NCBI GenBank assembly: GCA_945882015.1
Contig: CAMCVM010000002.1
Coordinates: 51,116-115,115, forward strand
Length of the DNA stretch: 64,000 bases
Reading direction: 5' to 3'
Source of the DNA: a candidate division TM6 bacterium GW2011_GWF2_32_72
GTDB taxonomy: Bacteria > Babelota > Babeliae > Babelales > CAIQNR01
Part shown: positions 2,887-44,746 of the stretch, piece by piece
How positions within the stretch are numbered: position 1 is the stretch's first letter
Layout: every line of letters begins with the position of its first letter
Translations under genes and position numbers: made by a program
Notes under the pieces: generated by a model
Database searches by the model: none
Seen by the model: the letters and a program-made list of their open reading frames with translations, nothing else
What the model was told of the DNA's origin: nothing

Positions 2887-5800
2887 ATGAAAAAATATTG
2901 TATCCTTTTATTCATTATAGTGAGCCAGCTACCTGTTGCAATGCAAGCAGATACAGCTCATTCTCTTGATCTTAAAGCTGCTCCTCCTGCTGGGCTTGCT
3001 GATATTGATACTTATAAACAGCAAAGGGTTGCGCAAAATAACTACTTTTTTGAGCATTTACCAAAAACAACACAACTGCCTGATTCTATAACCACAGAAG
3101 TAAAACGAGTATTTACACCACTCTTACCGCTCCTTTCCCCACAATATAAAGACCAAACAGAGCAAGAACGGCAAACTCAAGTTCTGAATAACATTATAAG
3201 TTTTTATGGACTTTTATATGTAGTGGCACAAGAACAAGCAGCTACCACTACTACTCCAAACCCAACACTTACCCCTTTGCAATTAAAACAATCAAAAATT
3301 TGGCAAGACCATTTAAAAATTATGGCAGCAACTTCTTACAGCCAAGAAATTGCTCTGTTAAAAACAGTCCACGAAAACGAACTTGAGCTTTTTCCATTGT
3401 TACCACAATTTGAAGTTGCATATTACCAACCAACTTTTGCTCAAATACGTAAATCTTCAGAGCTTACTAGAATCTATCTTATCTTAATTGATCGCTTAAG
3501 AAATCGATTTTTAGACGGAATTACTCGTTCTTCTGGCACAACAGCTGATCCATTCAGTTCAATTTTACAAATGATTGATGCCACTACTGCTAGCTTAAAA
3601 ACTGCTTCTGTGAGTCAAAAAGATTCATTACAAGCAACATTAATGCAGCAAAAAAACCAACTCTTTCAACTGATAGAAGCCTTTAAAACGGGTTCTTTTT
3701 ACACCTTAACAGTACTGTTTGAAAATCTTGATTGGTCAAAAACGTATCCCGTTTCTTTTAAAGATCAGCATGAAAATGCCGCTACGTTCAAGCAAATTAT
3801 TCAAGGACCTTATAATTTTGATCAATATTTTTCATCTGATAAAAAAACAGGTATAGCAACCGTTAATCCTGTTTTTTCACTCATGTTTGAAACCGGCCCT
3901 GCTGTTCAAGGTTCAAATGAGCAAGGGCTTTTTTTTACTCCGCTAGGTAATGCTCTTTTTAGTGGTATGATCTCATACCAAACAACTACGTTACCCGATG
4001 GAACGTCTTTATATACCGGAACGTTTGAGTATCAAAAAACAACGGGTAATACTACTCAAATAACTATTGATCAATTTTTCACAGAACAAACCAGTACTGT
4101 TACCGTTAACAAGCAACCAATAGAACAGGCTTCTTTAGTCCCGACCATGACCTATATGGAACTGCTGTGCTTTACTGCAATGAAAATGCTGTATACCGAT
4201 ATTGCCGAAATTTTTATTGGTTCTAATTTGCCACTTGCATGCAAAGCTATGACCACCACCGATCTTCCTAACTTTATTGCACAACAACCTGAGGATTATT
4301 TGTTACTCAGTCACATCAATCGGTTACAAGACTTTTTTACCAATCAAGGATTAACTGATAACTCAGGCCAAACGCCAAGCGTGCAAAGTTGTAAAAGTTT
4401 TGGCAGATGGCTCAAAAAAGTTGCTGATACCGTTATTAATGGCATAAAAAAAGCCGCAACCGAAGTCTGGCATGGAATAGAAACTGCGGCAAAAGGTGCC
4501 TTTGCTGCAGTTAAAGATGTTGGTAATGCAATATGGCACGGAATGAAAGCAATTGGCGATGAAGTAGTTGCGCTCTATTATGCAAGCGCTATTGCTCCCA
4601 TGTTGTTTCAAGGAATTTCTGCAAGTGATGCGTTAAAACATGCTGCGAGTTATCAAAAAGCTGCAAACGATCAAATGAATGCTGCAACTTCTGACTTGAT
4701 GAAATCTGTTGGTCATATCGCTCAAGCAGCAGAAGGACTTGCTCATGCTGCCGGAGCTATAGCTATTAATGCCATGAGCGAAGGATTGAGTTTAATTGAT
4801 TCAAAAATTGGTAACGATATGCTCAACACATGGGATGCGGTGGCAAATGGCATTATCAATTTTGCAAAAGATTCAACTGATATGTTTATTTCTCAAACCA
4901 GTTCTATTGTTAAACTTTCTGCAGGGGCTATTGAGTTGGTTTCAAGCACTATCGCTTCTATTGAAACAGGATCGTTTTCAACATTAAAAGGCGAAATTAA
5001 GGACCTTGCAAAAAACACTGCTTCGGCAATTTTAAGTTATATCAGTTTGGCTATTTCACAAATTACCGACGCTCTTAAAAGTGCAATGACCGCTATTGGC
5101 TATTTTGTTCAAACATTAACAGACACTGTTGTTCAATTAAGCGCTGCTGTTGCGACCCTTGCTTATTACGGCTGGGCTGATGGATTTTCAACAGGCTTTA
5201 ATGAAATGCAAGCAAAAGTATCAGAACACCAAAGAATTATTTCAAGCATTATTACCACCGTTGTTTTAATTGCAGTTACCGTTGCAACTGGCGGAGCTGC
5301 AACTCCTTTTGCAGCGGGAATGCTTGCTATGAACGTTGGAATGATGGCTATGTCAATTGTAGGGGCTGGGCAAGCAGACCAATTAGCTATTGATAAAAAA
5401 GCAAAACAACACAAATTTGTTGAAGATTATAAACAGTACGTGATTGAAAATGCTTCAGTTATTCAAGGGTTCAATACACAAAAAGCAATAGAAGAACTGG
5501 TGCAATTACAAAATGAAACCATGAACCAAGAGCGAGGACTGTTCTATTATCAAAATTATGTTAATGCGATTTTTAATGGGACTGTTTCGGCAAAAGCTTA
5601 TGGCGTTGGTAATTTAATCAGCCATCAAACTGGAGTTTCTGATAGTACTGGCGTAATGGTTGCAGACTTAGGATCGTTATACGCGATACAAACAGGAAGA
5701 ATGTCGTTAACTCCAACTGGCGGTTTTGCTGTTTATAACAAAAGCAGAAATTCTTTTAGCCAGGAAGCGGCACTTGAGCCAATAATAATGAATCATCAAA

Positions 5801-7932
5801 CACAAGTAACAACAAATTTAACACAAACAGCTGATGACAACGGAGCATGGTTTCATCAAAAAGATCTTGCACTTATTCCATCCGGAGATGGATTAAAAGC
5901 TGATATTGTATGGCGATCATTATATGAATATGATGGCCCATTTTATATTGGAATTTATCTAACAGAAAGATTTATTGATACTCAAGCAGTTAATAATGCT
6001 TATAATAATTTAGCGCAAGTAATTACCCCAACCAGTGGCACTACAACTGCTGCTGCTTTTGATGCTGCTTGGCAAAAAGTAGAAACATTTGGTCGCTATT
6101 TAGTTGATTATGATCATCTTGCAAAAATGTTTGTTTGTTACCGTCAATCAGCTGCAAGTATTGATAATGCAGCAAACTCAATACCAAAATTAGGAATTTA
6201 TCAGCATGAAGCAACTGAACAAACAGTCGCTGCAAATAATGGATGGATCCAATCAAATATTGGTACAATTAACTTTAAGCGTGGAACCTGGTACCGCATG
6301 CAAGCAACCATAATTGGAACAAAATTAACGGTTAACTTCTGGGAACTTGCCGATGAGCAAGCAGCAAGAAATGCTACCACAAAAGATCCTGTACCAAATT
6401 CCGCACTTACTCAAACAACAACAATTGAACAAGCTCTTGTGCCGCAAGATGTTCTAGCATTGTCCGCATCAAAATATTTTGGCGGGTCAATGGGGGTAAT
6501 TACTTCAGGTGCAGCTGTTGAGTATATTGTGATTGAACCAACAAGAGTTTTAACTGTTAATTTACAAGGAACTACCTCACAGCTGACAACGCTAACCAAA
6601 CCAATAGAAAGTGCTGCACGAGTTACGGCTAATACAAAGCTTTCACAAATTCCTGGTATGAATCAAACGGAAACTGAACGATCTTTAAATTGGCAAAAAG
6701 AACTTGCAAGCCAAATGGGGCTCACATTTGGCAACTTGACGCTGACCGCGCTCGATCAAGAATCACTGATTCGATCAGAATTTATTTATCAAACAAAAGG
6801 AATTTTTGATCAAACAACGCCAGACTTTGTTGTTTTTGCCAAGACCAATCAAAACCCAAATGCTCAACAGGTAGGAATAAGCGCACTTGAAACTCCAAAA
6901 CCTCTTTATATTATAAGTTTAGTAACCAATCAAATTATCGATACAACAGGAAAAATAGTTGGACAAGTTGAGAGTGCTTTAAACTTATACCTGCAACAAC
7001 ATCCAAAATTGTCTGATAGTGTGATGACGCAATTACAAAATTCACAAAGAACATACTTCCAATCGATGAGTTTGCCATTAACTTTTGCAAATAGCACCCT
7101 GACAGCAGATGTAACACAAATGGGCAATGGACTGTATGTGTATAGTGCTCCAGCACTTGACCCGCGCATTCAAGGTAAAACTGACTACTTTGTAACAACA
7201 ACAAGTAATAGTGTAGGAATTACTGCAACAGGAGCTCCTTTAAAACTAAGTGATGCGCCAACAACCACAACAGGATTAGTCAGCTTAGTAACTGGACAAG
7301 TTTACACATTGCAACAAAATGGTAAAACAGCTTCGATACTTTCAACAAAAACAGTTGGTACAACCACAATAACTGATGCAAAAACAACGTATGCTGTTTA
7401 TCCTGATTATCAAGCAAAATTGACTCCGCAAGCAAAAGCTACCATAGAAGCTGTGCAGCAAATCTTTAATGACTTACAAAAAACAGTCGCTGCTGAACAA
7501 GCATTGCAAACAAAGGCTCAGAACACTCTTAATACCTTAAATACACAACTGACATCAGTAATTACCACCATAACTTTTGCAACAGGCGATGCTTTAACGG
7601 CACTTAAGTCTGCCCAAGTAGTTAGCCAAAAAGCGTTAACTGATCTTAATAATGCGCTTGCTGCATTTAACAAAGCTCTTCCTACCAATCAAGCAGGGCC
7701 AAACACACAAGTAGCAATTAACTTGAATAATGTTCTTGATCAAGCAAATAGTGCAATTACTGCTTGTCAAAACGCAATCACTACTTATAATAATACACCA
7801 GTTACGCAAACAAGTACTGATTACGGTTCTTCAAGTGACTCTGGCTATGGTTATGGAACCACCGATCAAAGTTATAATGCAAATTATGGAACTGACCAGG
7901 CAACTGATTATGGCTATGGATCAGGATATTAA
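2887..7932 (+). CDS. giant (1681 aa) secreted or membrane-interacting hypothetical protein
   Basis: Uninterrupted 5-kb ORF with a taagga SD 7 nt upstream. Sec-type signal peptide MKKYCILLFIIVSQLPVAMQA. An Ala-rich amphipathic block with recurring WHG lies at about nt 4408-5240. Two predicted TM helices lie at about nt 5248-5370. A beta-rich module lies at about nt 5899-6540. The C-terminal tail is rich in Gly/Tyr/Ser/Asp/Thr. Confidence 0.7.
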   Translation: MKKYCILLFIIVSQLPVAMQADTAHSLDLKAAPPAGLADIDTYKQQRVAQNNYFFEHLPKTTQLPDSITTEVKRVFTPLLPLLSPQYKDQTEQERQTQVLNNIISFYGLLYVVAQEQAATTTTPNPTLTPLQLKQSKIWQDHLKIMAATSYSQEIALLKTVHENELELFPLLPQFEVAYYQPTFAQIRKSSELTRIYLILIDRLRNRFLDGITRSSGTTADPFSSILQMIDATTASLKTASVSQKDSLQATLMQQKNQLFQLIEAFKTGSFYTLTVLFENLDWSKTYPVSFKDQHENAATFKQIIQGPYNFDQYFSSDKKTGIATVNPVFSLMFETGPAVQGSNEQGLFFTPLGNALFSGMISYQTTTLPDGTSLYTGTFEYQKTTGNTTQITIDQFFTEQTSTVTVNKQPIEQASLVPTMTYMELLCFTAMKMLYTDIAEIFIGSNLPLACKAMTTTDLPNFIAQQPEDYLLLSHINRLQDFFTNQGLTDNSGQTPSVQSCKSFGRWLKKVADTVINGIKKAATEVWHGIETAAKGAFAAVKDVGNAIWHGMKAIGDEVVALYYASAIAPMLFQGISASDALKHAASYQKAANDQMNAATSDLMKSVGHIAQAAEGLAHAAGAIAINAMSEGLSLIDSKIGNDMLNTWDAVANGIINFAKDSTDMFISQTSSIVKLSAGAIELVSSTIASIETGSFSTLKGEIKDLAKNTASAILSYISLAISQITDALKSAMTAIGYFVQTLTDTVVQLSAAVATLAYYGWADGFSTGFNEMQAKVSEHQRIISSIITTVVLIAVTVATGGAATPFAAGMLAMNVGMMAMSIVGAGQADQLAIDKKAKQHKFVEDYKQYVIENASVIQGFNTQKAIEELVQLQNETMNQERGLFYYQNYVNAIFNGTVSAKAYGVGNLISHQTGVSDSTGVMVADLGSLYAIQTGRMSLTPTGGFAVYNKSRNSFSQEAALEPIIMNHQTQVTTNLTQTADDNGAWFHQKDLALIPSGDGLKADIVWRSLYEYDGPFYIGIYLTERFIDTQAVNNAYNNLAQVITPTSGTTTAAAFDAAWQKVETFGRYLVDYDHLAKMFVCYRQSAASIDNAANSIPKLGIYQHEATEQTVAANNGWIQSNIGTINFKRGTWYRMQATIIGTKLTVNFWELADEQAARNATTKDPVPNSALTQTTTIEQALVPQDVLALSASKYFGGSMGVITSGAAVEYIVIEPTRVLTVNLQGTTSQLTTLTKPIESAARVTANTKLSQIPGMNQTETERSLNWQKELASQMGLTFGNLTLTALDQESLIRSEFIYQTKGIFDQTTPDFVVFAKTNQNPNAQQVGISALETPKPLYIISLVTNQIIDTTGKIVGQVESALNLYLQQHPKLSDSVMTQLQNSQRTYFQSMSLPLTFANSTLTADVTQMGNGLYVYSAPALDPRIQGKTDYFVTTTSNSVGITATGAPLKLSDAPTTTTGLVSLVTGQVYTLQQNGKTASILSTKTVGTTTITDAKTTYAVYPDYQAKLTPQAKATIEAVQQIFNDLQKTVAAEQALQTKAQNTLNTLNTQLTSVITTITFATGDALTALKSAQVVSQKALTDLNNALAAFNKALPTNQAGPNTQVAINLNNVLDQANSAITACQNAITTYNNTPVTQTSTDYGSSSDSGYGYGTTDQSYNANYGTDQATDYGYGSGY

Positions 7933-7940
7933 GGACTATT

Positions 7941-9206
7941 GTGTTACAAGAAACGGTTCAACAGCTACCATTGCTCCCTGGGGTCTATCTTTTTAAAAAT
8001 AAAGAAGGCACTATTATTTATATTGGAAAAGCAAAGTCTTTAAAAGCTCGGGTTAGTTCTTATTTTCAAAATACCACCGACTGGAAAGTCAAAGCGCTTT
8101 TGGATGAAGCAACCAGTCTTGAACATATTATTACCAACACCGAAACAGAAGCATTATTACTTGAAGCACAACTGGTGCAAGAGTATGATCCAAAATTTAA
8201 TGTGTTATTAAAAACTGGTCAGCCGTTTTTATATCTTATGATCAGCAACCAGTCATTGCCGCACCTAAAAATTGTTCGTAATAAAGATGACAAAGGAACC
8301 TATTTTGGTCCATTTATTCACAAGAGCCAAGCTCGCTCAGTTTTAAATTTTCTAACGCAAACCTTTCAGCTTTTTTGTTGTAATAAAAAAATTGAAAACG
8401 GATGCCTTGATTACCATTTAGGTAAATGTGCAGGAACCTGCATGAAACAATTTAACAAGGCTGATTACCTGTTTAGAATCTTACTGGTAGACGATGTATT
8501 GCGCCAAGACCACGAAAAGTTTTTAAACAGAATTGACACCAAAATAAAAGAATATAGTGATGCATTGTCCTTTGAAAAAGCACGCAACTTGTACCGTTAC
8601 AAACAAGATGTAACGACTATTTTTAAAACATTACAAGCAAAATATTCTGACACTAAGTATATTCATGAAATCGCCAAAGCAACTACACAGTCAGAATCAA
8701 TTGATAATTACTCAGAAATTGCCCAAGAGCTTAAGAGACTTTTACAGTTGCAAGGACTACCAGAAACTATTGATTGTTTTGATATTTCACATTTTCAAAG
8801 CCGCTTTCTGGTTGGTTCTTGTGTTCGATTTAGTCACGGCAAACCGGACAAAAATAAGTTCCGTCGCTTTATGATTAAAACCTTAGCCGAACAAAACGAT
8901 TATGCTGCATTGCAAGAAGTTGTCATGCGTCGCTACAAAGACTCTAAAGAGCTGCCTGATCTTATTTTAATTGATGGAGGCAAAGGTCAACGCAATGCAG
9001 TACTATCGTTACTTGGCAAAACCCCATGCATCAGTTTAGCAAAAAAAGAAGAACTGCTTTTTTCTGATTACCATCCAGACGGGTTTGCACTTGATGTTAA
9101 AACAGGAATTGGTAAACTACTGATTAGTTTACGCGATTATGCGCATCATTTTGCAATCAGCTATCATAAATTGTTAAGAAAAAAGGGATCTTTTAGTAAA
9201 AACTAA
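7941..9206 (+). CDS. uvrC: excinuclease ABC subunit C, short form (421 aa, no C-terminal HhH2 domain)
   Basis: GIY-YIG N-terminus LPLLPGVYLFKNKEGTIIYIGKAKSLKARVSSYF. UVR-like segment ALSFEKARNLYRYKQDV. Endonuclease-domain motifs IDCFDISH and LILIDGGKGQ. The protein ends just after YAHHFAISYHKLLRKK, where E. coli UvrC continues into (HhH)2. GTG start. Confidence 0.8.
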   Translation: MLQETVQQLPLLPGVYLFKNKEGTIIYIGKAKSLKARVSSYFQNTTDWKVKALLDEATSLEHIITNTETEALLLEAQLVQEYDPKFNVLLKTGQPFLYLMISNQSLPHLKIVRNKDDKGTYFGPFIHKSQARSVLNFLTQTFQLFCCNKKIENGCLDYHLGKCAGTCMKQFNKADYLFRILLVDDVLRQDHEKFLNRIDTKIKEYSDALSFEKARNLYRYKQDVTTIFKTLQAKYSDTKYIHEIAKATTQSESIDNYSEIAQELKRLLQLQGLPETIDCFDISHFQSRFLVGSCVRFSHGKPDKNKFRRFMIKTLAEQNDYAALQEVVMRRYKDSKELPDLILIDGGKGQRNAVLSLLGKTPCISLAKKEELLFSDYHPDGFALDVKTGIGKLLISLRDYAHHFAISYHKLLRKKGSFSKN

Positions 9207-9213
9207 AGGAGCA

Positions 9214-10395
9214 ATGGTAGCAATACCGTTACTCAAAAAAAGGAAATCGACAATGAAAAAAGCGCTTATCTTAAGTACAATATTACTATTATCTCATCAA
9301 AATACTTTTACTGCCGAAGCTGCTCAAGCTAATCCTAATGATGCTCAATTTAAACGTCTTGCTTCTTTTACTACAAACGGAAGTAGCAATTTTGCTTTGA
9401 GTCCCGATGGAACAACTATTGCAACGGCTAGGTTAGGTGCTCTTGCAGTTTTTAATACCACAACTAGAGAAGTCCAAGATTTAAATATTCCTGCACCTGA
9501 TGGCAGTAATAAAGGTTTTCTTGGAGTCTCTTTTGCCAATAGTGGCTCATTTGTTGGTAGCACTTACTATCCTGAAGTTTGGGATCCTAAAACAGGAAAG
9601 TGTTGGGTAGTTTACACTGAAAAAGAATCAAGTCAGTACGCTCGACTAAGTCCTAATGGAGACCAATTATTAACAATTGGAAGGACCCCTCCCGAGGTTC
9701 GTAATATTCCTGTAATTTTGACCGCTAGGATCTGGGATACTCAAACAAAAAAGCCTCTTTGTGTTTTAAGTGCTGACGTAAGATTGGGACTCTTGGGCCC
9801 TGATGATAATTTTTGGAGTGATAATGGAAAGCTTGTTGCACTTCCATTAGAAGATACTATTGGAGTTTGGGAAAGCAATAACCCTAAAGCCTTACATATG
9901 CTAAGGCCTACAGGATTAGTTACCGCAACTGCTTTTAGTCCGGATCAAACAATGCTTGCGAGTGCATCATATAATAACGCTATCAACGTTTGGTGTCTTA
10001 AAACAGGAAACTGTTTAAACGTTTTAGAGGGTCACACCCAAAGATGTCGCAACATTTTTTTCACCGAAGATGAGCAGCAAATTATAACTCCTTCGCTTGA
10101 TGGAACAGTCAGAGTCTGGAACCCTCAAACAGGCGAATGTTTAAAGGTTTTAAAAGGGCACAAAAGGGCAATTATTTCAGCTGATTTTTGTCAAAAAACA
10201 GGAACACTTGCAACTGGATCACAGGATAAAACGGTTAGGATTTGGGATGTTAACACAGGAAAGCTCTTACAAAGAGTGCCTTGCTCAGGCTGGGTTGATC
10301 AAGTTGCTTTTGATGAAAGGGGAGAAACGCTGGCAATTGGTTCAGGTAAACTTGATACGTTTATGACTATTCAAGTTTTAAAGAAAACTAAGTAA
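9214..10395 (+). CDS. secreted WD40-repeat protein (tandem paralogue 1)
   Basis: Basic plus hydrophobic leader KKRKSTMKKALILSTILLLSHQNTFTAEA. Classic WD40 units follow (GH...DGTVRVWNPQTGECLKVLKGH...SQDKTVRIWDVNTG). Confidence 0.8.
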   Translation: MVAIPLLKKRKSTMKKALILSTILLLSHQNTFTAEAAQANPNDAQFKRLASFTTNGSSNFALSPDGTTIATARLGALAVFNTTTREVQDLNIPAPDGSNKGFLGVSFANSGSFVGSTYYPEVWDPKTGKCWVVYTEKESSQYARLSPNGDQLLTIGRTPPEVRNIPVILTARIWDTQTKKPLCVLSADVRLGLLGPDDNFWSDNGKLVALPLEDTIGVWESNNPKALHMLRPTGLVTATAFSPDQTMLASASYNNAINVWCLKTGNCLNVLEGHTQRCRNIFFTEDEQQIITPSLDGTVRVWNPQTGECLKVLKGHKRAIISADFCQKTGTLATGSQDKTVRIWDVNTGKLLQRVPCSGWVDQVAFDERGETLAIGSGKLDTFMTIQVLKKTK

Positions 10396-10400
10396 AAAAC

Positions 10401-11858
10401 ATGATTAATAGGGTATTTGGTAAAAAAAGGAAATCAATAGCAAAAAAAGTGATTATCTTAAGTACAATATTACTATTATCTCATCAAGGCATTTTTACTG
10501 CCGAAGGTGAAACTTTTGCTAAAAGGCCTCAATTGGTACCTGTTGTTTCTTTTAAGAGCAAAAATGAGAATTTTGCTTTGAGCCCTAATGGAGGAACACT
10601 TGCAATGACCGATTCAGGCCGACTTACAATTCTCAATCTTGAAGCGAGAAACTGCGAAGAATTACGTGCTCCAGCCCCTCAGGGCTACAACAAATATTTC
10701 ACAGCTGTCTCTTTTGCTGACAACAACAACAGACTTTTAGTTATTTCTTCCCGCCCTGAAATCTGGGATCTTAAAACAAAAACATGTTTATGGGTCGTGC
10801 AAAATACAACAAAAGTTTGCCATGCTCAGCTAAGTCCTGATGGAAAGAACTTATTAACAATTGAAGAAACCGCTGCTACAGTCTGGAATGTTGATAAAAA
10901 AAAACCTCTTTATCGTTTAGAAGAAGCTATAGAATCGTACTTTTTAAATACTCATAATTCTTTTTGGAGTAATAATGGAAAGCTTATTGCGCTTCCAACA
11001 TCAAAAGATTTTGCTGTTATAGTTTTTAGTGATGATGGATCTAAAACCCCACGCACTTTATCAGGACATACAAGAGAAGTTATTTCAGTTGCTTTTAGTC
11101 CGAATCAAACAATGCTTGCGACTGCATCATTTGATAAAACTATTAGACTTTGCTGCCTTGAAACAGGAAACTGTTTAAACGTTTTAGAGGGTCACACCAA
11201 ATTATGTCCTAACATGTTTTTCACCGAAGATGAGCAGCAAGTTATAACTCCTTCGGTTGATGGAACAGTCAGAGTCTGGGACCCTCAAACAGGCCAATGT
11301 TTAAAGGTTTTAGAAGGGCACGAACAGGTAATTACTACAAGTGCATTTTGTCCAAAAACAGGAATGCTTGTTACTGGATCACGGGATAAAACGGTTAGGA
11401 TTTGGGATGTTGAAGGAGAGCTCTTACAAATTGTGCCTTGCTCAAGCTGTGTTGATAAAGTTGCTTTCAATGAAGATGGAACAATGCTAGCAATTGGTTC
11501 AGGTAAAAATAGTAAGTCAGCTATGACTATTCAAGTTTTTACTCTCTTGCAACCTAAAAATACATATTTTGAGTTACTTGATAGTATCTTAGATAAGAGT
11601 CAACCTTATAGTGAAAGATCAAAAAAAGAACTTTCAGATTTACGAAAAAAAGAACAAGATAAAAAAGTAACCATAGAAAGATTGTGGCAGTTATTTGGCA
11701 CACAAATAAACTCCCCTGAGTTTGATATTGATAAAGCACAATTATTACTCCGTCAGCTTGAATATTTAGGAGTGGTAATTCCAGAAGAAGTGAATCGACT
11801 CATGCTGCAGAATACCCCTGACGACAAATTATTCCCATTAAACGAACAAAGAAAATAA
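10401..11858 (+). CDS. secreted WD40-repeat protein (tandem paralogue 2, with about 90-aa C-terminal extension)
   Basis: The leader KKRKSIAKKVIILSTILLLSHQGIFTAEG contains a 33-nt stretch identical to paralogue 1 (10454-10486 = 9268-9300). WD40 units include DGTVRVWDPQTGQCLKVLEGH and SRDKTVRIWDV. An extra helical K/E-rich tail is present. Confidence 0.8.
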   Translation: MINRVFGKKRKSIAKKVIILSTILLLSHQGIFTAEGETFAKRPQLVPVVSFKSKNENFALSPNGGTLAMTDSGRLTILNLEARNCEELRAPAPQGYNKYFTAVSFADNNNRLLVISSRPEIWDLKTKTCLWVVQNTTKVCHAQLSPDGKNLLTIEETAATVWNVDKKKPLYRLEEAIESYFLNTHNSFWSNNGKLIALPTSKDFAVIVFSDDGSKTPRTLSGHTREVISVAFSPNQTMLATASFDKTIRLCCLETGNCLNVLEGHTKLCPNMFFTEDEQQVITPSVDGTVRVWDPQTGQCLKVLEGHEQVITTSAFCPKTGMLVTGSRDKTVRIWDVEGELLQIVPCSSCVDKVAFNEDGTMLAIGSGKNSKSAMTIQVFTLLQPKNTYFELLDSILDKSQPYSERSKKELSDLRKKEQDKKVTIERLWQLFGTQINSPEFDIDKAQLLLRQLEYLGVVIPEEVNRLMLQNTPDDKLFPLNEQRK

Positions 11859-11876
11859 TTAAAAAAAGGATTGATA

Positions 11877-13007
11877 ATGAAAGTTAAATTACTGTTTTTG
11901 CTGTCTATAGCTACCACTGAACTGTTTTCAGCTAGTGCTGGCCCCTCCGCTATAACTCGTGGGCGTGCCGACTATATTGCCCAATTTTTTTGTAACGATC
12001 ACCATGATCAAATGCCAGAACGACATCTAGTTTATTCGGGCGATAGACTTCTTGTGGCTGATCGCAGAGCTGTAAATGGGCCCGCAATTACACAAGTTAC
12101 TCATGAATTAAAAGTTATTCCTGAAACAAATTTTGACAGCAGAAGCCCCTTTAAGTCAAGATGGCCTGTTACTTCATTATTAAGCACGCAAGGCGGCAGT
12201 CTGATTATTGGCGCTACAGATTACACATCAGGACGCGGTACTTTAACTATTGTTCCTTCTTGGGCGGTAAAAGAAGAATTAACAAGGTATCTAGGTATTG
12301 AGTACTCACAAAGAGACCCTGGTGGCCGTCCAACTTGTAAACCCGCAACAGCTGGTGACCTATTTGCGTTTGGACACCGAACAGGAGTTAGATTACATAG
12401 AATCGATAATGGCACATGGGCAAACGATCAAAGTATAGATGAAAGTAAAGAGGGCCGTAAAAAGAAAGATTTTGAATGGGGCCTGGGTCATCTGACAGCG
12501 ACTGGAATAGATTCGTTAAGTTTTGCTGCCGATGATAATACTTGTTTAGCTGCATCTTTTAAACCAGAGGGGGAACCTAGTGTTGTAAAGGTTTTTGATT
12601 TAGCACAATCAAAAATTCAATCGACTATTGAACCTGCTGACGCAGAAAATTTATCAAGCAAAAAAAAAGCAATATTTTCTCCTGAAGATCCAAATCTTTT
12701 AGCGGTTGTTGGGGCTGCTGCTGTAAACTTGTATGATCTAAGAAACAAGAAAAAGGAACCAGTCACAGCAATTGAATTTCATACTCATCAGGAACCAACT
12801 TCTTGCAGTTGGGATAGCGAAACAAGACTCATTGTAACTTCAAGCCCCAATCAAGTAATGGTAATTAATCCAAAAACTACGGATTATTTCTGTTTTGAAT
12901 TACTCAAAGACAACCATCCTAACGCAACAGCACTTGTACCCAAGGATGGAAAAGGTGATCTTTTCGTGGCAGGAACTCAACACCTTCATAGAATAGAATT
13001 ACCCTGA
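11877..13007 (+). CDS. secreted hypothetical protein, possibly a divergent beta-propeller
   Basis: ATG 11877 is preceded by an aaagga SD (track ORF uses TTG 11871). Signal peptide MKVKLLFLLSIATTELFSASAG. Repeated beta-strand-like ends (VVKVFDL, AVNLYDL, VMVINP) occur, but there are no clean WD motifs. Confidence 0.5.
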   Translation: MKVKLLFLLSIATTELFSASAGPSAITRGRADYIAQFFCNDHHDQMPERHLVYSGDRLLVADRRAVNGPAITQVTHELKVIPETNFDSRSPFKSRWPVTSLLSTQGGSLIIGATDYTSGRGTLTIVPSWAVKEELTRYLGIEYSQRDPGGRPTCKPATAGDLFAFGHRTGVRLHRIDNGTWANDQSIDESKEGRKKKDFEWGLGHLTATGIDSLSFAADDNTCLAASFKPEGEPSVVKVFDLAQSKIQSTIEPADAENLSSKKKAIFSPEDPNLLAVVGAAAVNLYDLRNKKKEPVTAIEFHTHQEPTSCSWDSETRLIVTSSPNQVMVINPKTTDYFCFELLKDNHPNATALVPKDGKGDLFVAGTQHLHRIELP

Positions 13008-13028
13008 AATAAAAGTTTAACAATGATC

Positions 13029-13081
13029 CTCGATTTGATGCGTTAGTTCAAGAAGCGCTTGATGAACTGCATTAAATCGAG
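13029..13081. other. 53-nt imperfect palindrome / long hairpin in an intergenic region
   Basis: ctcgatttgatgc...agttca..aagcgctt..tgaact..gcattaaatcgag, centred on agcgct. The outer 13-bp arms have one mismatch and the inner agttca/tgaact arms pair. A T5 run follows about 10 nt downstream (13092-13096). Confidence 0.35.
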
Positions 13082-13153
13082 CGTTGCTTGATTTTTATCA
13101 GGCTTTGTGCGTAAGATTTTCATGATCATTGCCGTTACTTAAAAAGGAAGTTC

Positions 13154-14122
13154 ATGAAAAAGTTTTATCTACTCTTTTGTATTAATATTGTCACTGTTGC
13201 TCTTTCTGCTGCCGAAGCGGCTTCAGCATCTACCCTGCCTGATGGCGTTGCATTAACGAAAACCGTTCCACAACTTGCTTATTGCCCAGTTGGATACTTT
13301 GTTCTTCTGTCAGCAGAAAATGCAGCTTGGCAGGCAAACAAGAGTGCGTCCTTACACAGTAATTGCTGGAAAATGGCCAAACCCATGATTTTTGATACTG
13401 ACTATTTAGGTATTTTTGTTCCAAACGCACTTCAAGACCCTAATAACTTGCGTTACTTAAACCAGCCGATAGAATACGTAGCAGAAATGGTTATAAAACG
13501 TAACGGTCACAAGCTACCTACAGACCCTGAAGCACTACTTGCTATGGAGCTTAAAACCACATTAACAACAAAAATGACGATGAAAGTAGGACCTTTACCC
13601 CTTTGCTACGCAATACAATGCCTTGTAAATACTTGCTGGACAGAACCAGCATACAATGTCCCAGAACGAAGAGGCGCTGTCATAGAAACATTTACTACTC
13701 TTGCTCAAAACACTTACCCTAACTTACTTGCGCACAAGCCAGTCAAAGGTAAAACTTGTTATGGCCCTTTAGGCTTTGCTCTTAACAAAATTTTTGAAAA
13801 AAAAGGAACAGACAAACCAAATCTTCCTGATATCCTTATTGATATGATAAAAATTCTTATCAGACATCATCCTTTGGTTGGCAAAGTTCAAGGAGACCCT
13901 GAAAAATCAGAATCTGCACTCGTATCACCTTTTGATTTGTTAACTGAGCTGCACCTTCAGCACGATAAAAGCACTATTACTCATCAAATAGCCGCTCTTT
14001 TTTTAGTACATAATATGCAAGTTTTTAGCCCATTTGAAGATAAAAGGTTATTTGAAACCAAAAATAAACTTACTGGCCTTGCCGAAGTAAAAGCATGGAT
14101 AGAAAAGTATAAATCTTGTTGA
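13154..14122 (+). CDS. secreted hypothetical protein (322 aa)
   Basis: aaaaaggaag SD upstream. Signal peptide MKKFYLLFCINIVTVALSAAEAASA. No family motif recognised. Confidence 0.55.
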   Translation: MKKFYLLFCINIVTVALSAAEAASASTLPDGVALTKTVPQLAYCPVGYFVLLSAENAAWQANKSASLHSNCWKMAKPMIFDTDYLGIFVPNALQDPNNLRYLNQPIEYVAEMVIKRNGHKLPTDPEALLAMELKTTLTTKMTMKVGPLPLCYAIQCLVNTCWTEPAYNVPERRGAVIETFTTLAQNTYPNLLAHKPVKGKTCYGPLGFALNKIFEKKGTDKPNLPDILIDMIKILIRHHPLVGKVQGDPEKSESALVSPFDLLTELHLQHDKSTITHQIAALFLVHNMQVFSPFEDKRLFETKNKLTGLAEVKAWIEKYKSC

Positions 14123-14196
14123 CTTTTGTTCTGATCGAGTTATGACTAATCTTATACTGCACTTGGCCACAACCAACTTTATACAAAGGTTAGCGT

Positions 14197-16302
14197 ATGA
14201 AACCAGAACATAAAGAACTTTTACAAAAATACACCCAAAATTTGACCGACCTTGCACGAAAAAGAAAACTTGACCCAGTAATTGGCCGACATGAAGAAAT
14301 CCGCCGAGTGATTCAAATCCTTTCCCGCAGGACCAAAAATAATCCGGTACTGATTGGTCAGCCCGGGGTTGGTAAAACTGCAATTGTTGAAGGCATTGCC
14401 CAACGAATTGTCCACAATGATGTTCCAGAAAGTTTAGCCGGCAAAGAGATTTTTTCACTTGATTTAGGGCTTTTAGTTGCTGGTGCAAAATACCAAGGTG
14501 AGTTTGAAGAACGCATAAAAAATATTTTAAAAGCGGTCGAAGAAGCGCAAGATACGGTGATTCTTTTCATTGATGAACTGCATATGCTGGTTGGAGCTGG
14601 TTCAAGTGGCGGTGGTATGGATGCTTCTAACCTTTTAAAACCTGCCCTTGCTCGTGGTTTATTGCATTGTATTGGCGCAACCACACTAAAAGAATATAAA
14701 CAGTACATTGAAAAAGATGCGGCACTTGAGCGTCGTTTTCAACCAGTGTATGTTGAAGAACCAACACCTGAAGACGCACTTTCTATCTTGAGAGGACTTA
14801 AAGAACGATACGAACTGCATCACGGTATAAAAATTAAAGACCAGGCACTGGTTAATGCGGTTGAACTTTCAACCAAAAATATTCCTGATCGGTTTTTACC
14901 TGACAAAGCAATTGATTTGATAGATGAAGCTGCATCAATGGTAAGAATGTCTATTGACTCACAACCGGAAGCACTTGATAAATTAGAACGTAAAGTCAGC
15001 CAACTTGAAATTGAAAAAGTTGCATTAGCTAAAGAAAAAGATGAACTTTCTAAAAGACGTTTAATAGAACTTGAAAAAGAGTTAATCGATTTAAAAGAAC
15101 AACAAAGTCAGTTGTTCAATCAATGGAAAGCCGAAAAAGCACCGCTTGAAAAAATTAACAAACTCAAAGAAGGAATCGATGCGGCACATTACCAATATAC
15201 CTTAGCAGAACGTGCTGGTGACTTTGCAAAAGCTTCAGAAATTAAATATGGCAAATTGATGCAACTAGAAAAACAACTTGAAGAACAGCAGACTGCTTTG
15301 CAGAATTTAAAAACATCATTAGTCAAACAAGAAGTTGATGAGCATGATATTGCAGCAGTTCTTGCTCGTTGGACAAAAATCCCCACTGAAAAATTGCAGC
15401 AAAGTGAACATGAAAAACTGTTACATATGCAGGCTCATTTAGAAGAAAAAGTAGTAGGACAAAAGCAAGCAGTTGAAAAAGTAACGCAAGCTATTCAAAT
15501 GCATCGAGCTGGTCTGACCGACCCTAATCGACCAATCGGTTCATTTATCTTTTTAGGGCCGACAGGGGTTGGTAAAACTGAAGTGGCAAAATCACTTGCT
15601 GATTTTTTATTTAATGACCCACGCAAAATGATCCGAATTGATATGTCTGAATATATGGAAAAACATGCGGTCGCTCGATTGATTGGAGCCCCTCCGGGGT
15701 ACATTGGTTATGAGCAAGGTGGCCAACTGACTGAAGAAGTTCGACGCAATCCGTATTCAGTTATCTTGTTTGATGAAATTGAAAAAGCACACCCTGATGT
15801 CTTTAATATCTTTTTACAAATCCTTGATGAAGGACATTTAACTGACGGACAAGGCAGAAAAATTTCGTTTAAAAACACGATTATTATTATGACCTGCAAT
15901 ATCGGAGCGCAACTAATTCTTGAAGCAAAAACTATTACTGAAAAAGTTAAAGCAGCAGTTGATGATTTACTTAAAAAAACCTTTAAACCTGAGTTTTTAA
16001 ATCGTATTGATGCAATTGTATTTTTTAATAAGTTACAAGAAACAGACATTCAAGCAATTACCAAAATTCAACTGGAAGAACTGACTAAAAGGTTGCGTAC
16101 TAAAAACATCAAGGTAACATTTGACAAAGGGGTTATTGAGCAATTAACCCACCTAGGGTATGACCCAGAATTTGGGGCACGCCCCTTAAAACGAACTATT
16201 CAAGAATATGTCACTGTCCCTTTGTCGCAAGCCCTGCTAAGTAATCCAGATAAAAAAGAATTTTCTGTTGATTTGAAAAATGATCAGTTTTTAATTACCT
16301 AA
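14197..16302 (+). CDS. clpB: ClpB disaggregase lacking the N-terminal domain (701 aa)
   Basis: Collinear with E. coli ClpB from about residue 155 ([61 protein letters not shown]). Both Walker A motifs are present ([16 protein letters not shown]), as are the coiled-coil M-domain and the GARPLKR sensor motif. Confidence 0.9.
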
Positions 16303-17629: not shown

Positions 17630-19174
17630 TTATTTATAAAGTAGTCGCTTATAAAGATCTACCACTGCTTCAATTGGCATTTTTTCAAGATCTTTCAAGG
17701 AAATCTTCTGTCGATCAAGCCGACGTCGCCACAGTACAAGGTCGTTATCCTGAGAAAGGGTAAACAGTGTTTTGCCGTCTTCTGAAAATACTGTACACTT
17801 TAGTGGGTCGTTAAGACCGACTGAATGGTGGCAATGAGTACACACTCCTGTCTGAACATCAGTTAATACAAACGCTCCCGACAGGAAAGAATTAATTAAT
17901 TGCTTTGCGTCTGGTGAAAATAGTAAAAAATATGAATCAGCAGACCTGCTGAAAGATTTAATAAACTCTTTTTTTTGATGATCCCATAACTCAACATTAC
18001 CATTTTCAAAAGCAATTGCTAAAAGTTCTCCATCACGAGATAAAGCAAAGTTCTTTACAGGTTCAGGTAGCATCAAATCACCGATAAATTGACTGTTTTG
18101 AGTATTCCATAAACTGATTTTAAAAAAACTATCTCGTGCCGCTACTAAGCATTTGGCAGGAGAAAAACAAATTTTATGATCACAAGTAACCGGTATAAAA
18201 AAATCGCTTACTCTTTTTGCTTCTTTGATGTCCCATATTGTTACTTGATTCCTGATAGAAGAAGTTACAACCCTTTCATCATCTACAAAATAAAAGACAC
18301 TTACTGGGGCATTATGGGGGAGTAGTACGTCAGGAGTGATTGATCCTGATTCGATTTCCCATAACTGCGCTTCATACTTGTTTGAAATTACTCCAAGTAG
18401 TCGCCCATTTGGAGAAAGTCTCATCGAATTTATGACCGAAGCATCCTTAGGATCCATGTAAACTTTTGCTCTATCAGATGGAGCTGCACAGTCTACAAGT
18501 GGGGCAGCAAAATCTTCTTTATTTTTTAAGACTTTAACTTCTCCATCGACTAAAACAACTATAATAGAGCTTCCATCAGGATTAGAGGCGATCGATTGAA
18601 CCTGTAATTGTTCCATCTTAGTCCTAGACCATCCTGCCGCCCAGCTATATAAATCTTCTGTTAGACGTTTTTTTAATAGTGGATTTTGGTTAATTGCTTT
18701 ATATGTTTCTTGATCTATTTCTTTTTCTATCTGCTGAGTAAACCTTTCAGCTAATTCATTATAAATAAGATTTAGTGATGAAAACGATTCCCCCCTCCAT
18801 GTCTGTGGTTTAATAATACAATATGCTGCTGTATTATACCAAAGTACTAAATTTCTTAAGTCCATATTATTTAATCTTTCTGGAAAACCTTCAGGATTTT
18901 GCGAAAACTTTGCTAATTCTTCTAATGCTAATCCATGAACTTTAGAACTAGGCAGTTCAATTGGGTTTTGATTATTAACAGAAGAACGTGAAGCTAAAGA
19001 AAAATCAAGCCGCTCAAAATGTTTTGCCGATACTCGAGGTAATCTGATTTCTTTTCCCCCTACATACACGGCAAGGAATTCCTCTTCTAATGATTCATTT
19101 TCTGCTGTATACAAAGCGAAAGTCCAAAAGAAAAATACAAACCCAGTGCGTACCATATGATTGATTGATTGCAT
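17630..19174 (-). CDS. WD40/beta-propeller protein with N-terminal hydrophobic leader and about 200-aa N-domain
   Basis: Leader VRTGFVFFFWTFALYTA. The C-terminal half has repeated propeller-blade endings (QVTIWDI, KISLWNT, NVELWDH, DLVLWRR). Confidence 0.65.
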   Translation of the reverse strand: MQSINHMVRTGFVFFFWTFALYTAENESLEEEFLAVYVGGKEIRLPRVSAKHFERLDFSLASRSSVNNQNPIELPSSKVHGLALEELAKFSQNPEGFPERLNNMDLRNLVLWYNTAAYCIIKPQTWRGESFSSLNLIYNELAERFTQQIEKEIDQETYKAINQNPLLKKRLTEDLYSWAAGWSRTKMEQLQVQSIASNPDGSSIIVVLVDGEVKVLKNKEDFAAPLVDCAAPSDRAKVYMDPKDASVINSMRLSPNGRLLGVISNKYEAQLWEIESGSITPDVLLPHNAPVSVFYFVDDERVVTSSIRNQVTIWDIKEAKRVSDFFIPVTCDHKICFSPAKCLVAARDSFFKISLWNTQNSQFIGDLMLPEPVKNFALSRDGELLAIAFENGNVELWDHQKKEFIKSFSRSADSYFLLFSPDAKQLINSFLSGAFVLTDVQTGVCTHCHHSVGLNDPLKCTVFSEDGKTLFTLSQDNDLVLWRRRLDRQKISLKDLEKMPIEAVVDLYKRLLYK

Positions 19175-21277: not shown

Positions 21278-24200
21278 TCAATTTCCTTTAGCTTTTCTTA
21301 ATTCGTTCAAGTTAGCTTGAACTACACTTTCAAATGATAGGACAGCTGCCTGTGCAACGTCAAAGTCTTTTTGCCCCTTTAAATGCTGAGCTTTATTAAG
21401 AAGTTCAATATAAACTCTTGTCAATTGAAGTAACTGTTGAAATTCAGGCACAGTTGTTGCAGCATTAATCATTTTCCTTAACAGCAATATACATGCAAGA
21501 AACTGACTGGATTGAGCCTTAAAATCGTGTTCCTCCAACTTTTCATGCGGAATATCAAAAAGAATGCTTAAGAGCTCTCCCCAATCGTTCAGTTTTTCAG
21601 TATAATCTTTGATTTGTTCAGATGTAAATTGAACCTTAGTGTCATCATTTATTACATCTTCAGTTGCTAATAAATCGCGTTGAAAATCTGTTAACCTTTT
21701 GCTAAAAAATTCTGGTCTTGTAATTAATAATTTATTCGATTCTTTAATGAGCGTTCTAATAAGCGTAAGTTTTTCCTGTATTTCAGCTTCTATTTTTGTG
21801 TCAGTTTCTTGCAATTGACCGCCGTGCCCCTGCTCAAGCCTAACTGCATTCTTCGATAAAAATTGCATTATATTCTCAAGTTGTTTTCTTGTTTCTTCAC
21901 GTAACGTTTTATCTGGCGCAGATAGAGATAGAGCAACGGCATTCAATAACATTGCGTAGTAAGAAGTAACACTCATTAAATCTAGTCTTTTTTGAAGTTC
22001 GGTTGTCCCGGCATGTGTTGTTATCATGGCACCTAATGGAACTGTCCACCAATCAAGTTCTTCAATAAGTTTGTTGCGTGTAGAATCACTACTCAAAAGT
22101 TCATACCCTTTAACAGAATCTATCAAAACAGCTTCTGCCCACCTTTTAAGTCCTTGGTTAAATTGATCAACCACTCTTTCAGCCTCACTTTTTGGTTGTT
22201 GCTGACCTTTTAAAGATTTTAATATGGATGCTGAATCTTGTGGCTTTAATTTTTCTTGAACTTTTACTTCAGGCTTTTTAACGGTCTCATTTCTGATTTG
22301 TAATGCTGCAGGTTCATCCGGCAAAAGACATTCTTCTTTAGCGTGACGCATCCGATATTCAAGTCTTTTTTTATCATTCTCTGCTAATGAGGATTGGTTT
22401 AGATAGTATTCAATTGCTGCTTCAATTCCCTCAAAATAACCTCCCTCTGTAACCATCTCGATTGCTTGACCAATTGCTTCTTCTTTCTTAGATTTATATG
22501 AACCTTTATTAAATAAGTTAGAATATGGACCTTTTATAATTGCTCTAGCAGCCACCATTCTTGTTTCAAAATCATTATTTTCATTTTGTTGCGCTCTAAA
22601 AAGCTTTTCTAACATATTGGCCGTTATACTTCCTGCTGTATTCATACGATTATATAGGTCATCGCCTAATATATTTTTCATTATCGTTTGAGGATCTTGT
22701 TTTTTTAATATTTTTGCTGGTTGTCCTTTTGCATTTCTTGCAGCTTGTCGATCTAAGTATTCTCTTTCTCTTCGATCTTTTTCTGCTTGCAAAGCAGCGG
22801 AATCGGCACTAACCTGGTCGCCTTTTTTCTTTGGTTTTTTGGCTTTAGAAGAATCTTGCCCTTGAAGATTTACTGGTTTTGGTTGCTCTAATTGTTGTGC
22901 CAATGTAACTTCTTCTAATCTTTGCGCTGTAGCTCTTGCTGAAGCTTCTCTGTCTGCTTGATCTTGTTGTGCTTTTTCTTGAGCTCTTTCAATTTCTTCT
23001 CTTGCTGCTTTATCTTTTTGTGCTTTTTCAAGTGCTTGTTGTTCTTGCTCTTTTTTTTCTCTTTTTTTTGCTTTTGCGGCTTTTTGCATCTCTCTTTTTC
23101 TTCTATTTCTTGCAGCATTTGAAAGTGTCCCAGGTCCCGTTTGTTGATCTTGCACTTGATCATCTGCTGATTCTTCATCACTTTCTACTGGTTGCTGCGT
23201 TGCGCTTTGCGCTTTCTGTGTTTCTTCTTGTGCTCTTCTTTTGGCCTCTTCTTGCTCCTGCTCTTGCATTTGACGAGCGAGAGCTTCATCTTGTTCTATT
23301 TGAAGCCTTTTTAATTCTTCTTTTTCTTCATACTCATCAATCATTAATTGTTCTAAAGCATCCTGCGCAAGCTCTTGTTGAGCTTGTGGAATATCAAAAG
23401 CTGTTACTCCCATTGCTATAAGATCTGCATCTGGTATTCCTTTAAGAATTAAATCTTTTAAATCATCTGGTGACATGGCCTGTTTAACAGGTCTCTGGGT
23501 AGCTCTGTTAGTAGAGGCTTGCGATTGTTCACCAGAAGGGTTCATTTCTTCTGAGGTCAAAAGTGATGGTCCTTGAAATTCAAATCGAGTTGAAGGTTTT
23601 TGTTGAGGTAAAGAAGCTGCTTGCTGCTGGGCGGCTTGGAGCAATTGCTCCATTTGCTGTCGCAGTTCAGCTACTGTTCTGCTCAAATCAGCTATTTTTG
23701 CTTCTTGTACTTGTATTTGTAGTGCAGTTGGTTGTTGTTCAGCTATCCTTGCTGCTTGCATTTCTAGCGCAGTTGGTTGTTGTTGAAAACCAAATGGCAA
23801 TAAAGGAAAGCCTGTTTGTTGCGGGTATAATCTACTATATCCAGAAACCGTTTGTGAGTTTTGCGGCACCAATGTTTTAGCAAAAAGAGTAGGTTGATTT
23901 TGAAGTGGCCTTACTGGACCTTGTCCTCTCTCTCTTCTTACTACCGAATTTTCTCTTTTCCTCTGGTCAGCCTTCTGTAAAAGCCGTAAAAGTTGTGGTC
24001 CTTGATTTGTTACAGCGGCTGCTTGAGTTGATCCTGTCGCTACAGTAAAAGGTTGACTTGAGGGACTCAGCAATTCTCTTAAGTTAAGAATATATTTATC
24101 TTTATTTTTTTCTGGTAGCAATTGACCATTTACTAGTGCAGCTCCTGAATAATAAGTTCCATTATCATTGAAAATAGATACGAAAGGAGAATTTTGTTCT

Positions 24201-43059: not shown

Positions 43060-43108
43060 TATCCCTGCCTAACGTTAATGTGAGCTTTATTACTCTCTCT
43101 ATTTTATT

Positions 43109-44164: not shown

Positions 44165-44369
44165 CGTGGTTTCCCTCTAATTTATGTAAAAAAAATATTC
44201 TGAAAAGTCCTGCCTAGGACATTGTACCAAAAAAGAAGAAAAATAGAAGCTTTTTCCCATTTTAGGTAAAAAAAGAGCATAAACTTAATTTTTTAAAAAA
44301 AGTTTTAAGTATATACAGTATATAATTATATATTTCTTTTACTATATTAGTATTATGCTCGAGAGAAAA

Positions 44370-44378
44370 TGTGGATAA
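44370..44378 (-). promoter_or_regulatory. isolated perfect DnaA box next to the AT-rich tract
   Basis: tgtggataa at 44370-44378. It is preceded by the GC-rich gctcgagag (44357-44365) and a TAN-periodic run tattagtattat (44345-44356). Confidence 0.5.
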
Positions 44379-44436
44379 CTTCTGTTTTTTATCACCGAAT
44401 ACCTTTCTAGGTCGTCAAATAGCTCTTCAAGAACAA

Positions 44437-44478
44437 TGTGGATAACCTGTGGATAACCTGTGGATAACTTGTGGACAA
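44437..44478 (-). repeat. array A: four head-to-tail DnaA boxes at exact 11-bp spacing
   Basis: tgtggataa at 44437, 44448 and 44459, and tgtggacaa (one mismatch) at 44470. Confidence 0.8.
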
Positions 44479-44578
44479 CTTCCCTTGGATCCTTGATTTC
44501 CTTATTGTAAGCCTATTTCAGGAGTATTTCACATTAAAAGCTTTTCCTAATCATGGTTTTCAAGGGGGCGAAAATAAG

Positions 44579-44620
44579 TTATCCACAGGTTATCCACAAG
44601 TTATCCACAAGTTATCCACA
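44579..44620 (+). repeat. array B: four head-to-tail DnaA boxes at exact 11-bp spacing, inverted relative to array A
   Basis: ttatccaca at 44579, 44590, 44601 and 44612, all perfect. Confidence 0.8.
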
Positions 44621-44746
44621 ATTTCAATGAGTATTAATTTTCTGATTCACTCTTTAATTAAAGGCATTTTTCTTTTGAGGTTTTATTTTCAGAAAATTTA
44701 ATAGCTTGTGTCGCAAGAATGGCGGTTTTAAGTTAGATAATAAGCC

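Follow-up and report, generated by a model that had tools for sequence, protein, structure and literature searches.

The DNA analysed here, hereafter the window, is a 64,000-nucleotide (nt) stretch of contig CAMCVM010000002.1 from a bacterium of the Babeliales (Dependentiae, TM6), and our subject is a pair of adjacent WD40 genes, WD1 and WD2, in the interval between uvrC and clpB. WD1 (9214..10395, + strand, 393 residues) and WD2 (10401..11858, + strand, 485 residues) are co-directional, nearly abutting open reading frames (ORFs) directly 3′ of uvrC (7941..9206). WD2 is followed by two small, exported-looking ORFs (11871..13007 and 13154..14122) and then by clpB (14197..16302). Each WD gene encodes a heuristically assigned signal peptide and a predicted eight-bladed WD40 propeller (residues 44-383 in WD2), with a C-terminal helical tail in WD2 and none in WD1. 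Both proteins exceed the curated Pfam threshold for WD40 (PF00400; 86.7 bits for WD1 and 105 bits for WD2, cutoff 27), and WD2 also exceeds that of Beta-prop_WDR3_1st (210 vs 154). Relatives keep the WD1 start that lies at 9253 (ATG; MKKALIL..., 380 residues): in L009, one of the comparison loci introduced below, the upstream ATG at 9214 reads ATT, so that only the 9253-type start is conserved, and in L002 and L004 the gene call begins there. A promoter and terminator scan of 7800-14300 returned counts indistinguishable from those of shuffled sequence.

The first-pass annotation, made from the letters of the window, had described two adjacent WD40 genes with Sec-type leaders; the ORFs and Pfam matches bear this out, and the leaders agree by heuristics only. 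By those heuristics (a positively charged n-region, an h-region of 7–15 residues, small residues at −3/−1, no lipobox Cys), both N-termini are putative canonical signal peptides of the Sec (signal peptidase I) type. The n-region is K/R-rich (MKK / KKRKS..KK), the 11-residue core reads (A/V)(L/I)ILSTILLLS with a mean Kyte-Doolittle hydrophobicity of 2.8–3.1, and the cleavage sites, AEA-A in WD1 and AEG-E in WD2, have small residues at −3/−1 and no lipobox Cys.

At the nucleotide level, the WD1 leader block (9235..9322, + strand) takes in the last part of the n-region, the core and the cleavage site, and forms a direct repeat at 86% identity with the WD2 leader block (10422..10509, + strand), which likewise includes its cleavage site. 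Within it lies an exact 33-mer (9268-9300 = 10455-10487) that occurs twice in the window, with 0 occurrences expected by chance; the annotation had found this run but placed its second copy one position too early, at 10454-10486. Leader nucleotide identity is 83–100% over all paralogues and species, so conversion in this genome alone was rejected as the source of leader conservation.

An AlphaFold2 model of WD2 (mean predicted local distance difference test score, pLDDT, 79; predicted template modelling score 0.71) contains eight WD (c-strand) units at residues 44-383, with pLDDT 90–97 in the last four (blades 5-8), preceded by a low-confidence N-terminal helix (residues 7-28) and a disordered linker. 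The predicted fold of WD2 is thus a closed eight-bladed WD40 propeller with four-stranded blades. A Foldseek search of the WD2 model against the PDB placed eight-bladed WD40 propellers at the top (ODA16, Tako8, Fbw7 and TBL1XR1; E = 1e-25 to 1e-21). WD2 resembles ODA16/DAW1, Fbw7 and TBL1XR1 in its predicted eight-bladed fold (target-normalised template modelling score 0.6–0.8), but shares only 21–23% sequence identity with them and carries no F-box, LisH or other partner domains. Neither a specific nor a direct eukaryotic origin, for which the annotation had proposed a test, is indicated: the nearest matches outside the family are WD40 proteins of bacteria and fungi, generic and highly repetitive, with 24–42% identity, mostly over only part of the query.

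The WD2 tail (11562..11855, + strand) is an orphan segment of ∼98 residues with five predicted helices (residues 389-471, pLDDT 63–76), and is better conserved than the propeller. It had no match in Pfam, NCBIfam or PDB sequences, and among 1.84 billion representative proteins it was found in one representative cluster only, which belongs to the same family; a SHE3 match (E = 0.02) was weak and judged to be chance. The annotation had described a helical tail of about 90 residues gained by WD2. The helical tail itself stands, at slightly greater length, whereas a gain is unsupported: all WD2-type genes have the tail, also at single-copy loci, so that its loss from WD1 is no less likely.

The WD1/WD2 family has no curated model in NCBIfam. 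Searches for family members in 185,579 species-representative genomes and in JGI metagenome contigs recovered unrelated WD40 proteins and one locus already in our set, and a family hidden Markov model (HMM), run on the window ORFs of 100 residues or more, gave neither additional copies nor fragments. The family sample therefore comprises about ten contigs, all of them metagenome assemblies.

The two genes are mosaic in their similarity to each other. The nucleotide identity profile is bimodal, at ∼83% in the leader, 52–72% over residues 36-232 and 70–95% (mostly ≥80%) over residues 233-385. A repeat search matched 9909-10208 to 11069-11368 at 85% and 10257-10350 to 11414-11507 at 84%, and 150 of 161 nucleotides are identical between 10001-10161 and 11161-11321, exactly the count given in the annotation. 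Maximum chi-square analysis placed the single best breakpoint at nt 9930 of WD1 and nt 11090 of WD2, one position from the block start that had been estimated by hand (9931/11091), with mismatches of 38% before and 15% after it (permutation p = 0.001). Amino acid identity is 37% in the front part (residues 36-232) vs 68% in the back part (residues 233-385), and nucleotide identity 59% vs 84%; the reported non-uniform identity and the ∼40% estimate for the N-terminal blades both hold. A longest-run permutation test in the style of GENECONV was significant for the window pair (p = 0.0005), and the same test on the L009 pair was not (p = 0.06).

The near-identical flanks between strains allow the history of this secreted WD40 pair to be read directly. 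Syntenic loci were available from near-identical strains (L001; L002, identical to L003; L004, with a near-identical second assembly L005; and L006), in which uvrC is 97–99% and clpB 99.8% identical to the window at the nucleotide level, and from a sister species (L009, identical to L010 and L011; L007; L008), in which uvrC is 93% identical. The window also matches a 632-kb contig of ‘Candidatus Babeliales bacterium’ at 97% identity over 17.6 kb. L009 has the same uvrC-WD1-WD2 arrangement as the window, with a pair that is not homogenised: its WD1 and WD2 share just 70% of their nucleotides in the back half.

We built trees with bootstrap from a codon alignment of 14 genes split at the breakpoint into the front and back parts defined above. 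In the front part, all WD1 genes including that of L009 grouped together (100% bootstrap), as did all WD2-type genes (97.6%). The back part gave 0% bootstrap for either orthologous grouping and instead united WD1 and WD2 of the window species, with the sister-species genes outside (86%), and also WD1 of L004 and L006 with the ‘WD2a’ allele of L001 and L002 (99.8%).

Synonymous divergence (dS) follows the same division. Between the window paralogues dS is 0.53 in the front part and 0.097 in the back part, and between the L009 paralogues 0.64 and 0.39; orthologues of the window and L009 differ by 0.24–0.31 and 0.23–0.28. Front-part paralogue dS (0.49–0.64) is thus about twice the orthologue value, and back-part dS of the window pair is less than half of it and five-fold under the front part. 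Window WD1 and L009 WD2 are separated by 0.49 in the front part but by 0.227 in the back part, close to the 0.234 of the true WD2 orthologue.

Because L009 has both genes, and its WD1 joins window WD1 in the front half at full bootstrap support, the WD1/WD2 duplication is older than the split from the sister species. The incongruence between the trees of the two halves, the back-half dS below that of orthologues, and the significant run-length and chi-square tests together strongly support non-allelic gene conversion, in which WD2-type sequence overwrote blades 5-8 of WD1 from nt 9930 onward after the species split. The converted tract, of WD2 origin, spans 9930..10380 (+ strand; residues ∼239-389), and its WD2 counterpart, also blades 5-8, spans 11090..11539 (+ strand). 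Gene conversion was one of the two histories offered in the annotation, and the half-wise tree conflict, the dS pattern and the run-length result all favour it.

The same half was converted at least twice, a further and very recent event having occurred in other strains. The back half of L004 WD1 is 99% identical to that of L001 WD2a and shares with it 122 consecutive identical polymorphic sites in the run-length test; dS between the two is 0.46 in the front part and 0.019 in the back part.

Three readings without gene conversion have to be set against this evidence. A recent tandem duplication after which the N-terminal blades diverged faster, the other history offered in the annotation, would leave the back-half similarity as a remnant, and the mosaic profile within one genome fits it; the unhomogenised pair already present in the sister species, with a WD1 in the same uvrC-adjacent position that groups with window WD1 in the front half, does not. 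Nor do the paralogue dS values, about double the orthologue level in front and under half of it in the back, since faster protein evolution cannot bring dS down, and we regard this history as refuted. Stronger purifying selection on blades 5-8, in place of recombination, would agree with the more canonical WD40 motifs (GH...WD) of the back half compared with the front. Yet the ratio of non-synonymous to synonymous divergence (dN/dS) between the back halves of the window paralogues is ∼1.9, the low value being the synonymous one, and such selection cannot lower dS beneath that of orthologues; the back halves of the sister-species pair share only the 70% identity noted above, and between strains the back half varies as much as the front, which leaves selection alone scarcely credible.

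Chimeric assembly, of co-occurring strains or of the two paralogues, deserves weight because every sequence is metagenomic, exact runs of 20–50 nt could mislead an assembler, and L004 and L005 are rich in errors. A collapsed repeat would, however, be identical throughout, whereas the tract within the window genome is 84–93% identical, and the phylogenetic signal spans hundreds of sites. The same alleles also came from independent samples and pipelines: L002 (ENA) equals L003 (JGI), L009, L010 and L011 are identical across three runs, L004 and L005 are identical in uvrC and in the WD1 protein, and the window's proteins were recovered on two or three contigs. We therefore hold an assembly artefact to be highly improbable as the source of the mosaics, and retain conversion between the paralogues as the explanation.

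Conversion is one of several rearrangements at this locus. The number of genes between uvrC and clpB ranges from one to five among relatives: one WD gene in L007, two in L009, two plus two further genes in the window and L002, and three plus two further genes in L001; L008 has one WD gene directly 3′ of uvrC on a contig that stops before clpB. In L001, a remnant of WD1 lies between WD2a and WD2b (L001:9407-9560), where 63 nt of the WD1 5′ region continue in-frame from the WD2a tail, giving this protein a fused C-terminal end (...FDLSNDGKTFTMASLGALAVFDNVGN), and 48 nt that match the WD1-end/WD2-start junction exactly come next (111 nt in all). This remnant indicates that the whole pair was duplicated and that the array then lost an internal segment, and WD2a of L006 carries the same in-frame C-terminal extension. 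In L007 (L007:745-900), the upstream region and first codons are of the WD1 type and the body is that of L009 WD2 (97–100% identical), so the single copy looks like a deletion by recombination between two leaders. As the switch falls inside the leader, which is conserved in all copies, the leader block acts as a recombination substrate. WD2 alleles are themselves a patchwork: WD2 of L002 matches that of the window over 104 consecutive polymorphic sites and elsewhere matches L001 WD2a.

Non-allelic homologous recombination among the tandem repeats thus yields conversion, duplication and deletion at this locus, and the uvrC-clpB interval behaves as a variable island. In L004 and L005 (JGI 3300049043 and 3300045937), many genes are split, clpB into three to five pieces and WD2 into two or three. 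These splits look like sequencing or assembly frameshift errors rather than biology, because housekeeping genes are also hit, and WD2 of these two loci entered nucleotide-level comparisons only.

The WD proteins also evolve fast. Between strains, 300-nt windows outside the WD1-WD3 region are mostly 99–100% identical, with patches of 93–97% in uvrC and in the gene for a 1681-residue exported protein 5′ of it, and identity drops to 78–93% in WD1, WD2 and the gene at 11871..13007, which encodes a 378-residue protein. By a simple Nei-Gojobori count on recombining sequences and non-independent pairs, dN/dS between strains or species is 0.05–0.12 for uvrC, clpB and the 1681-residue protein, 0.9–1.8 for WD1 and 0.8–1.4 for WD2, and between strains 0.85–1.2 for the 378-residue protein. 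The non-synonymous rate of the propellers is 10–30 times that of neighbouring genes at similar synonymous rates. Between species, the WD2 tail has a dN/dS of ∼0.4 vs ∼0.9–1.0 for the propeller.

The WD genes are not decaying. All 14 copies are intact. When the observed differences were placed at random, 9–16 stop codons arose; of 3000 simulations, four of the five pairs had none with an open frame, and the remaining pair at most one. Variability is much lower in β-strands than in loops (p ∼1e-7), with dN/dS of 1.2–2.0 in loops (one-sided Fisher p of 0.01–0.07 in several pairs, on a crude count) and 0.6–1.3 in strands. We read this pattern as probable diversifying selection on the propeller surfaces over a conserved scaffold.

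WD40 propellers are protein-binding platforms. A role in host interaction, as the annotation had suggested, or at the cell surface would fit the putative signal peptides, the fast-changing loops, the variation in copy number and the restriction of the family to very few taxa; similar proteins of the phylum have been given such a role in the literature by inference (PMC4378268, PMC6561590). In the mechanism that we propose, Sec would carry WD1 and WD2 across the inner membrane, after which the proteins would be released or displayed; the propeller surfaces would bind host or other external partners, and diversifying selection, together with the reshuffling of half-propellers between paralogues and alleles, would generate binding variants. 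Taken as a whole, an old pair of secreted WD40 genes shaped by conversion, locus reshuffling and fast evolution, with a presumed role towards the host, is in our judgement the probable explanation of the locus.

Several observations weigh against this account. L004 WD1 is only 89.7% identical to its present neighbour, which therefore was not the donor of the recent conversion; the event requires either inter-strain exchange or a lost third copy. The key back-half grouping has 86% rather than 100% bootstrap, and the comparison sequences are all metagenome assemblies, two of which (L004 and L005) have many frameshifts. Enrichment of variation on the top face is weak or absent (top vs bottom loops, p = 0.07 to 0.8), whole-gene dN/dS is not significantly above 1 (e.g. 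p = 0.065 in the back half), so that part of the dN/dS signal may come from surface residues under relaxed constraint. Export and host targeting of WD1 and WD2 are, moreover, steps that we infer.

The points on selection and export bear on a reading in which conversion is real but the proteins are the bacterium's own periplasmic or envelope scaffold, their high dN/dS reflecting relaxed, unimportant surfaces. The bacterial propellers TolB and BamB work in the periplasm, which is as far as a Sec leader alone reaches, and both a whole-gene dN/dS near 1 and the lack of top-face enrichment agree with such a scaffold. A copy number of one to three among close relatives and a family limited to one small clade would, however, be unusual for envelope housekeeping, and the loop dN/dS of 1.2–2.0 also speaks against it. 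The neighbouring 1681-residue protein, likewise secreted but with a dN/dS of ∼0.1, shows in addition that secretion alone relaxes nothing here. On balance, we think a purely periplasmic role unlikely, though it is the main rival where function is concerned, and continue to favour host interaction for the converted pair.

A more specific possibility, which we put forward tentatively, is that the interval serves as a locus of combinatorial diversification, in which half-propellers and leaders would be swapped among paralogues and co-circulating strains while selection on the loops tracks host targets or defences. Natural DNA uptake might help, as a ComEC-like gene lies in the window. If true, the set of uvrC-clpB alleles would help to set which protist strains are infectable, and the island would be a bacterial counterpart of the arms-race effector clusters of eukaryotic pathogens, as well as an entry point to host range among uncultured Dependentiae. 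The WD genes are good candidates for host-interaction or host-range factors, and the locus could serve as a strain-typing marker.

Gene conversion between paralogues is familiar from babA/babB and other outer-membrane protein pairs of Helicobacter pylori. By analogy, WD1 and WD2 would resemble babA/babB as full-length, separately expressed paralogues that swap segments, with chimeric alleles differing between strains and conserved ends as substrates; they differ in fold and organism, and the unit exchanged here is half a β-propeller. Borrelia vlsE, Anaplasma msp2 and Neisseria pilE/pilS are programmed cassette systems of antigenic variation. There too, segmental conversion makes mosaic variants of an exported protein under diversifying selection, which may be the case here, but the WD locus has no expression site with a silent, truncated archive: every WD copy is complete, with a start and a leader of its own, and the events are evolutionary ones seen between strains. 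A programmed cassette system was rejected, as neither the family HMM nor the 33-mer pointed to silent donors in the window, and the only truncated piece is the 111-nt scar in one strain.

Dependentiae are widespread, obligately intracellular parasites of protists, almost entirely uncultured, with many exported repeat proteins. Known representatives are intracellular parasites of protists (PMC4378268, PMC4776705, PMC6561590). Several WD40 and other β-propeller proteins have been reported from the group, some of them predicted to be secreted; 78% of ankyrin proteins carry signal peptides, as do 44% of the coding sequences of Chromulinavorax, and the authors interpret the repeat proteins with signal peptides as host-directed (PMC4378268, PMC4776705, PMC6561590). 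Type II secretion components and the shedding of outer-membrane vesicles have also been reported (PMC4776705, PMC6561590, PMC4378268). The remark in the annotation that signal-peptide-bearing WD40 proteins are atypical for free-living bacteria is therefore beside the point, since the organism belongs to the Babeliales, in which eukaryote-like repeat proteins with signal peptides, WD40 proteins included, are already described (PMC4378268, PMC4776705, PMC6561590).

The pair resembles the eukaryote-like secreted repeat proteins (ankyrin, WD40, LRR, F-box and TPR) of Dependentiae and further amoeba-associated bacteria, such as Babela massiliensis, Chromulinavorax destructans and TM6SC1, in coming from the same phylum-level lineage, in combining an interaction repeat domain with a Sec signal peptide and in forming lineage-specific tandem duplicates. 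Unlike those proteins, the WD1/WD2 family, with its eight blades and orphan WD2 tail, has no named homologue and is confined to a handful of contigs. Secreted repeat proteins of Dependentiae and conversion between tandem paralogues are both already known, so no new mechanism is involved; WD40 examples in Dependentiae have been mentioned before but not studied. Neither conversion nor strain-level hypervariability of such genes is reported in PMC4378268, PMC4776705 or PMC6561590, and the term ‘gene conversion’ is absent from PMC4378268.

The remaining island genes and one separate WD40 gene share some of these features. The third island gene (11871..13007, + strand, 378 residues) is fast-evolving and encodes a protein with a signal-peptide-like N-terminus and marginal WD40-like similarity: its Pfam WD40 match is sub-threshold (E = 1e-5), BLASTP against WD2 gives E = 0.002, and NCBIfam gave no match. 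It is 82–90% identical to other strains over 12101-13000 (L001 and L004) or 12401-13000 (L002). The fourth (13154..14122, + strand, 322 residues) also has a signal-peptide-like N-terminus and had no match in Pfam or NCBIfam. Both genes are missing in L007 and L009, where clpB directly follows the WD genes.

The separate gene (17630..19174, − strand) encodes a strain-variable, secreted-type protein of 514 residues with Pfam WD40-type propeller matches; the family HMM matches it at E = 1e-10 only, and it is ∼25% identical to WD2. The annotation had joined the 378- and 514-residue proteins to WD1 and WD2 in one local family, which holds loosely, in the sense of marginal and true WD40 similarity, respectively; a single sequence family for all four was rejected on the sub-threshold and ∼25% similarities. 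Compared by eye with its allele in L002 (L002:17220-18845), the 514-residue protein differs strongly in the centre, with the first ∼80 residues mostly and the last ∼50 almost fully conserved; no alignment was obtained for window positions 17793-18646, and the flanking DNA is ∼99% identical. L001 (16779-18321) has the same allele as L002, split into ORFs of 350 and 147 residues.

Other genes of the window merit brief mention. The 1681-residue protein (2887-7932, + strand) has a signal-peptide-like start, a G/Y/S/D-rich C-terminal end and no Pfam or NCBIfam match; its gene is under strong purifying selection (dN/dS ∼0.1), and patches of 93–96% identity between strains suggest recombination. An ORF at 47530-48624 (− strand) matches the Pfam ‘Competence’ (ComEC-type) domain, and a DNA-uptake channel of this type could bring in the DNA from other strains that the allelic mosaics imply. 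A second tandem pair, of Peptidase_C11 (clostripain-family) genes, lies at 44747-46078 and 46068-47498 (− strand) with an 11-nt overlap; secreted C11 peptidases are among the putative effectors of Chromulinavorax (PMC6561590). A 1009-residue ORF without a Pfam match (21278-24307, − strand) lies where the AT skew of the window is most extreme (−0.35, 22001-24000). The cumulative GC skew is lowest near 44 kb and climbs beyond it, with the sign change among the IF-2, NusA and C11 peptidase genes (∼42000-46000) and no dnaA nearby. In one contig of the sister species, an AbiEi/AbiEii toxin-antitoxin pair (L008:1127-2733) lies directly 5′ of uvrC, the position that the 1681-residue gene occupies in the window.

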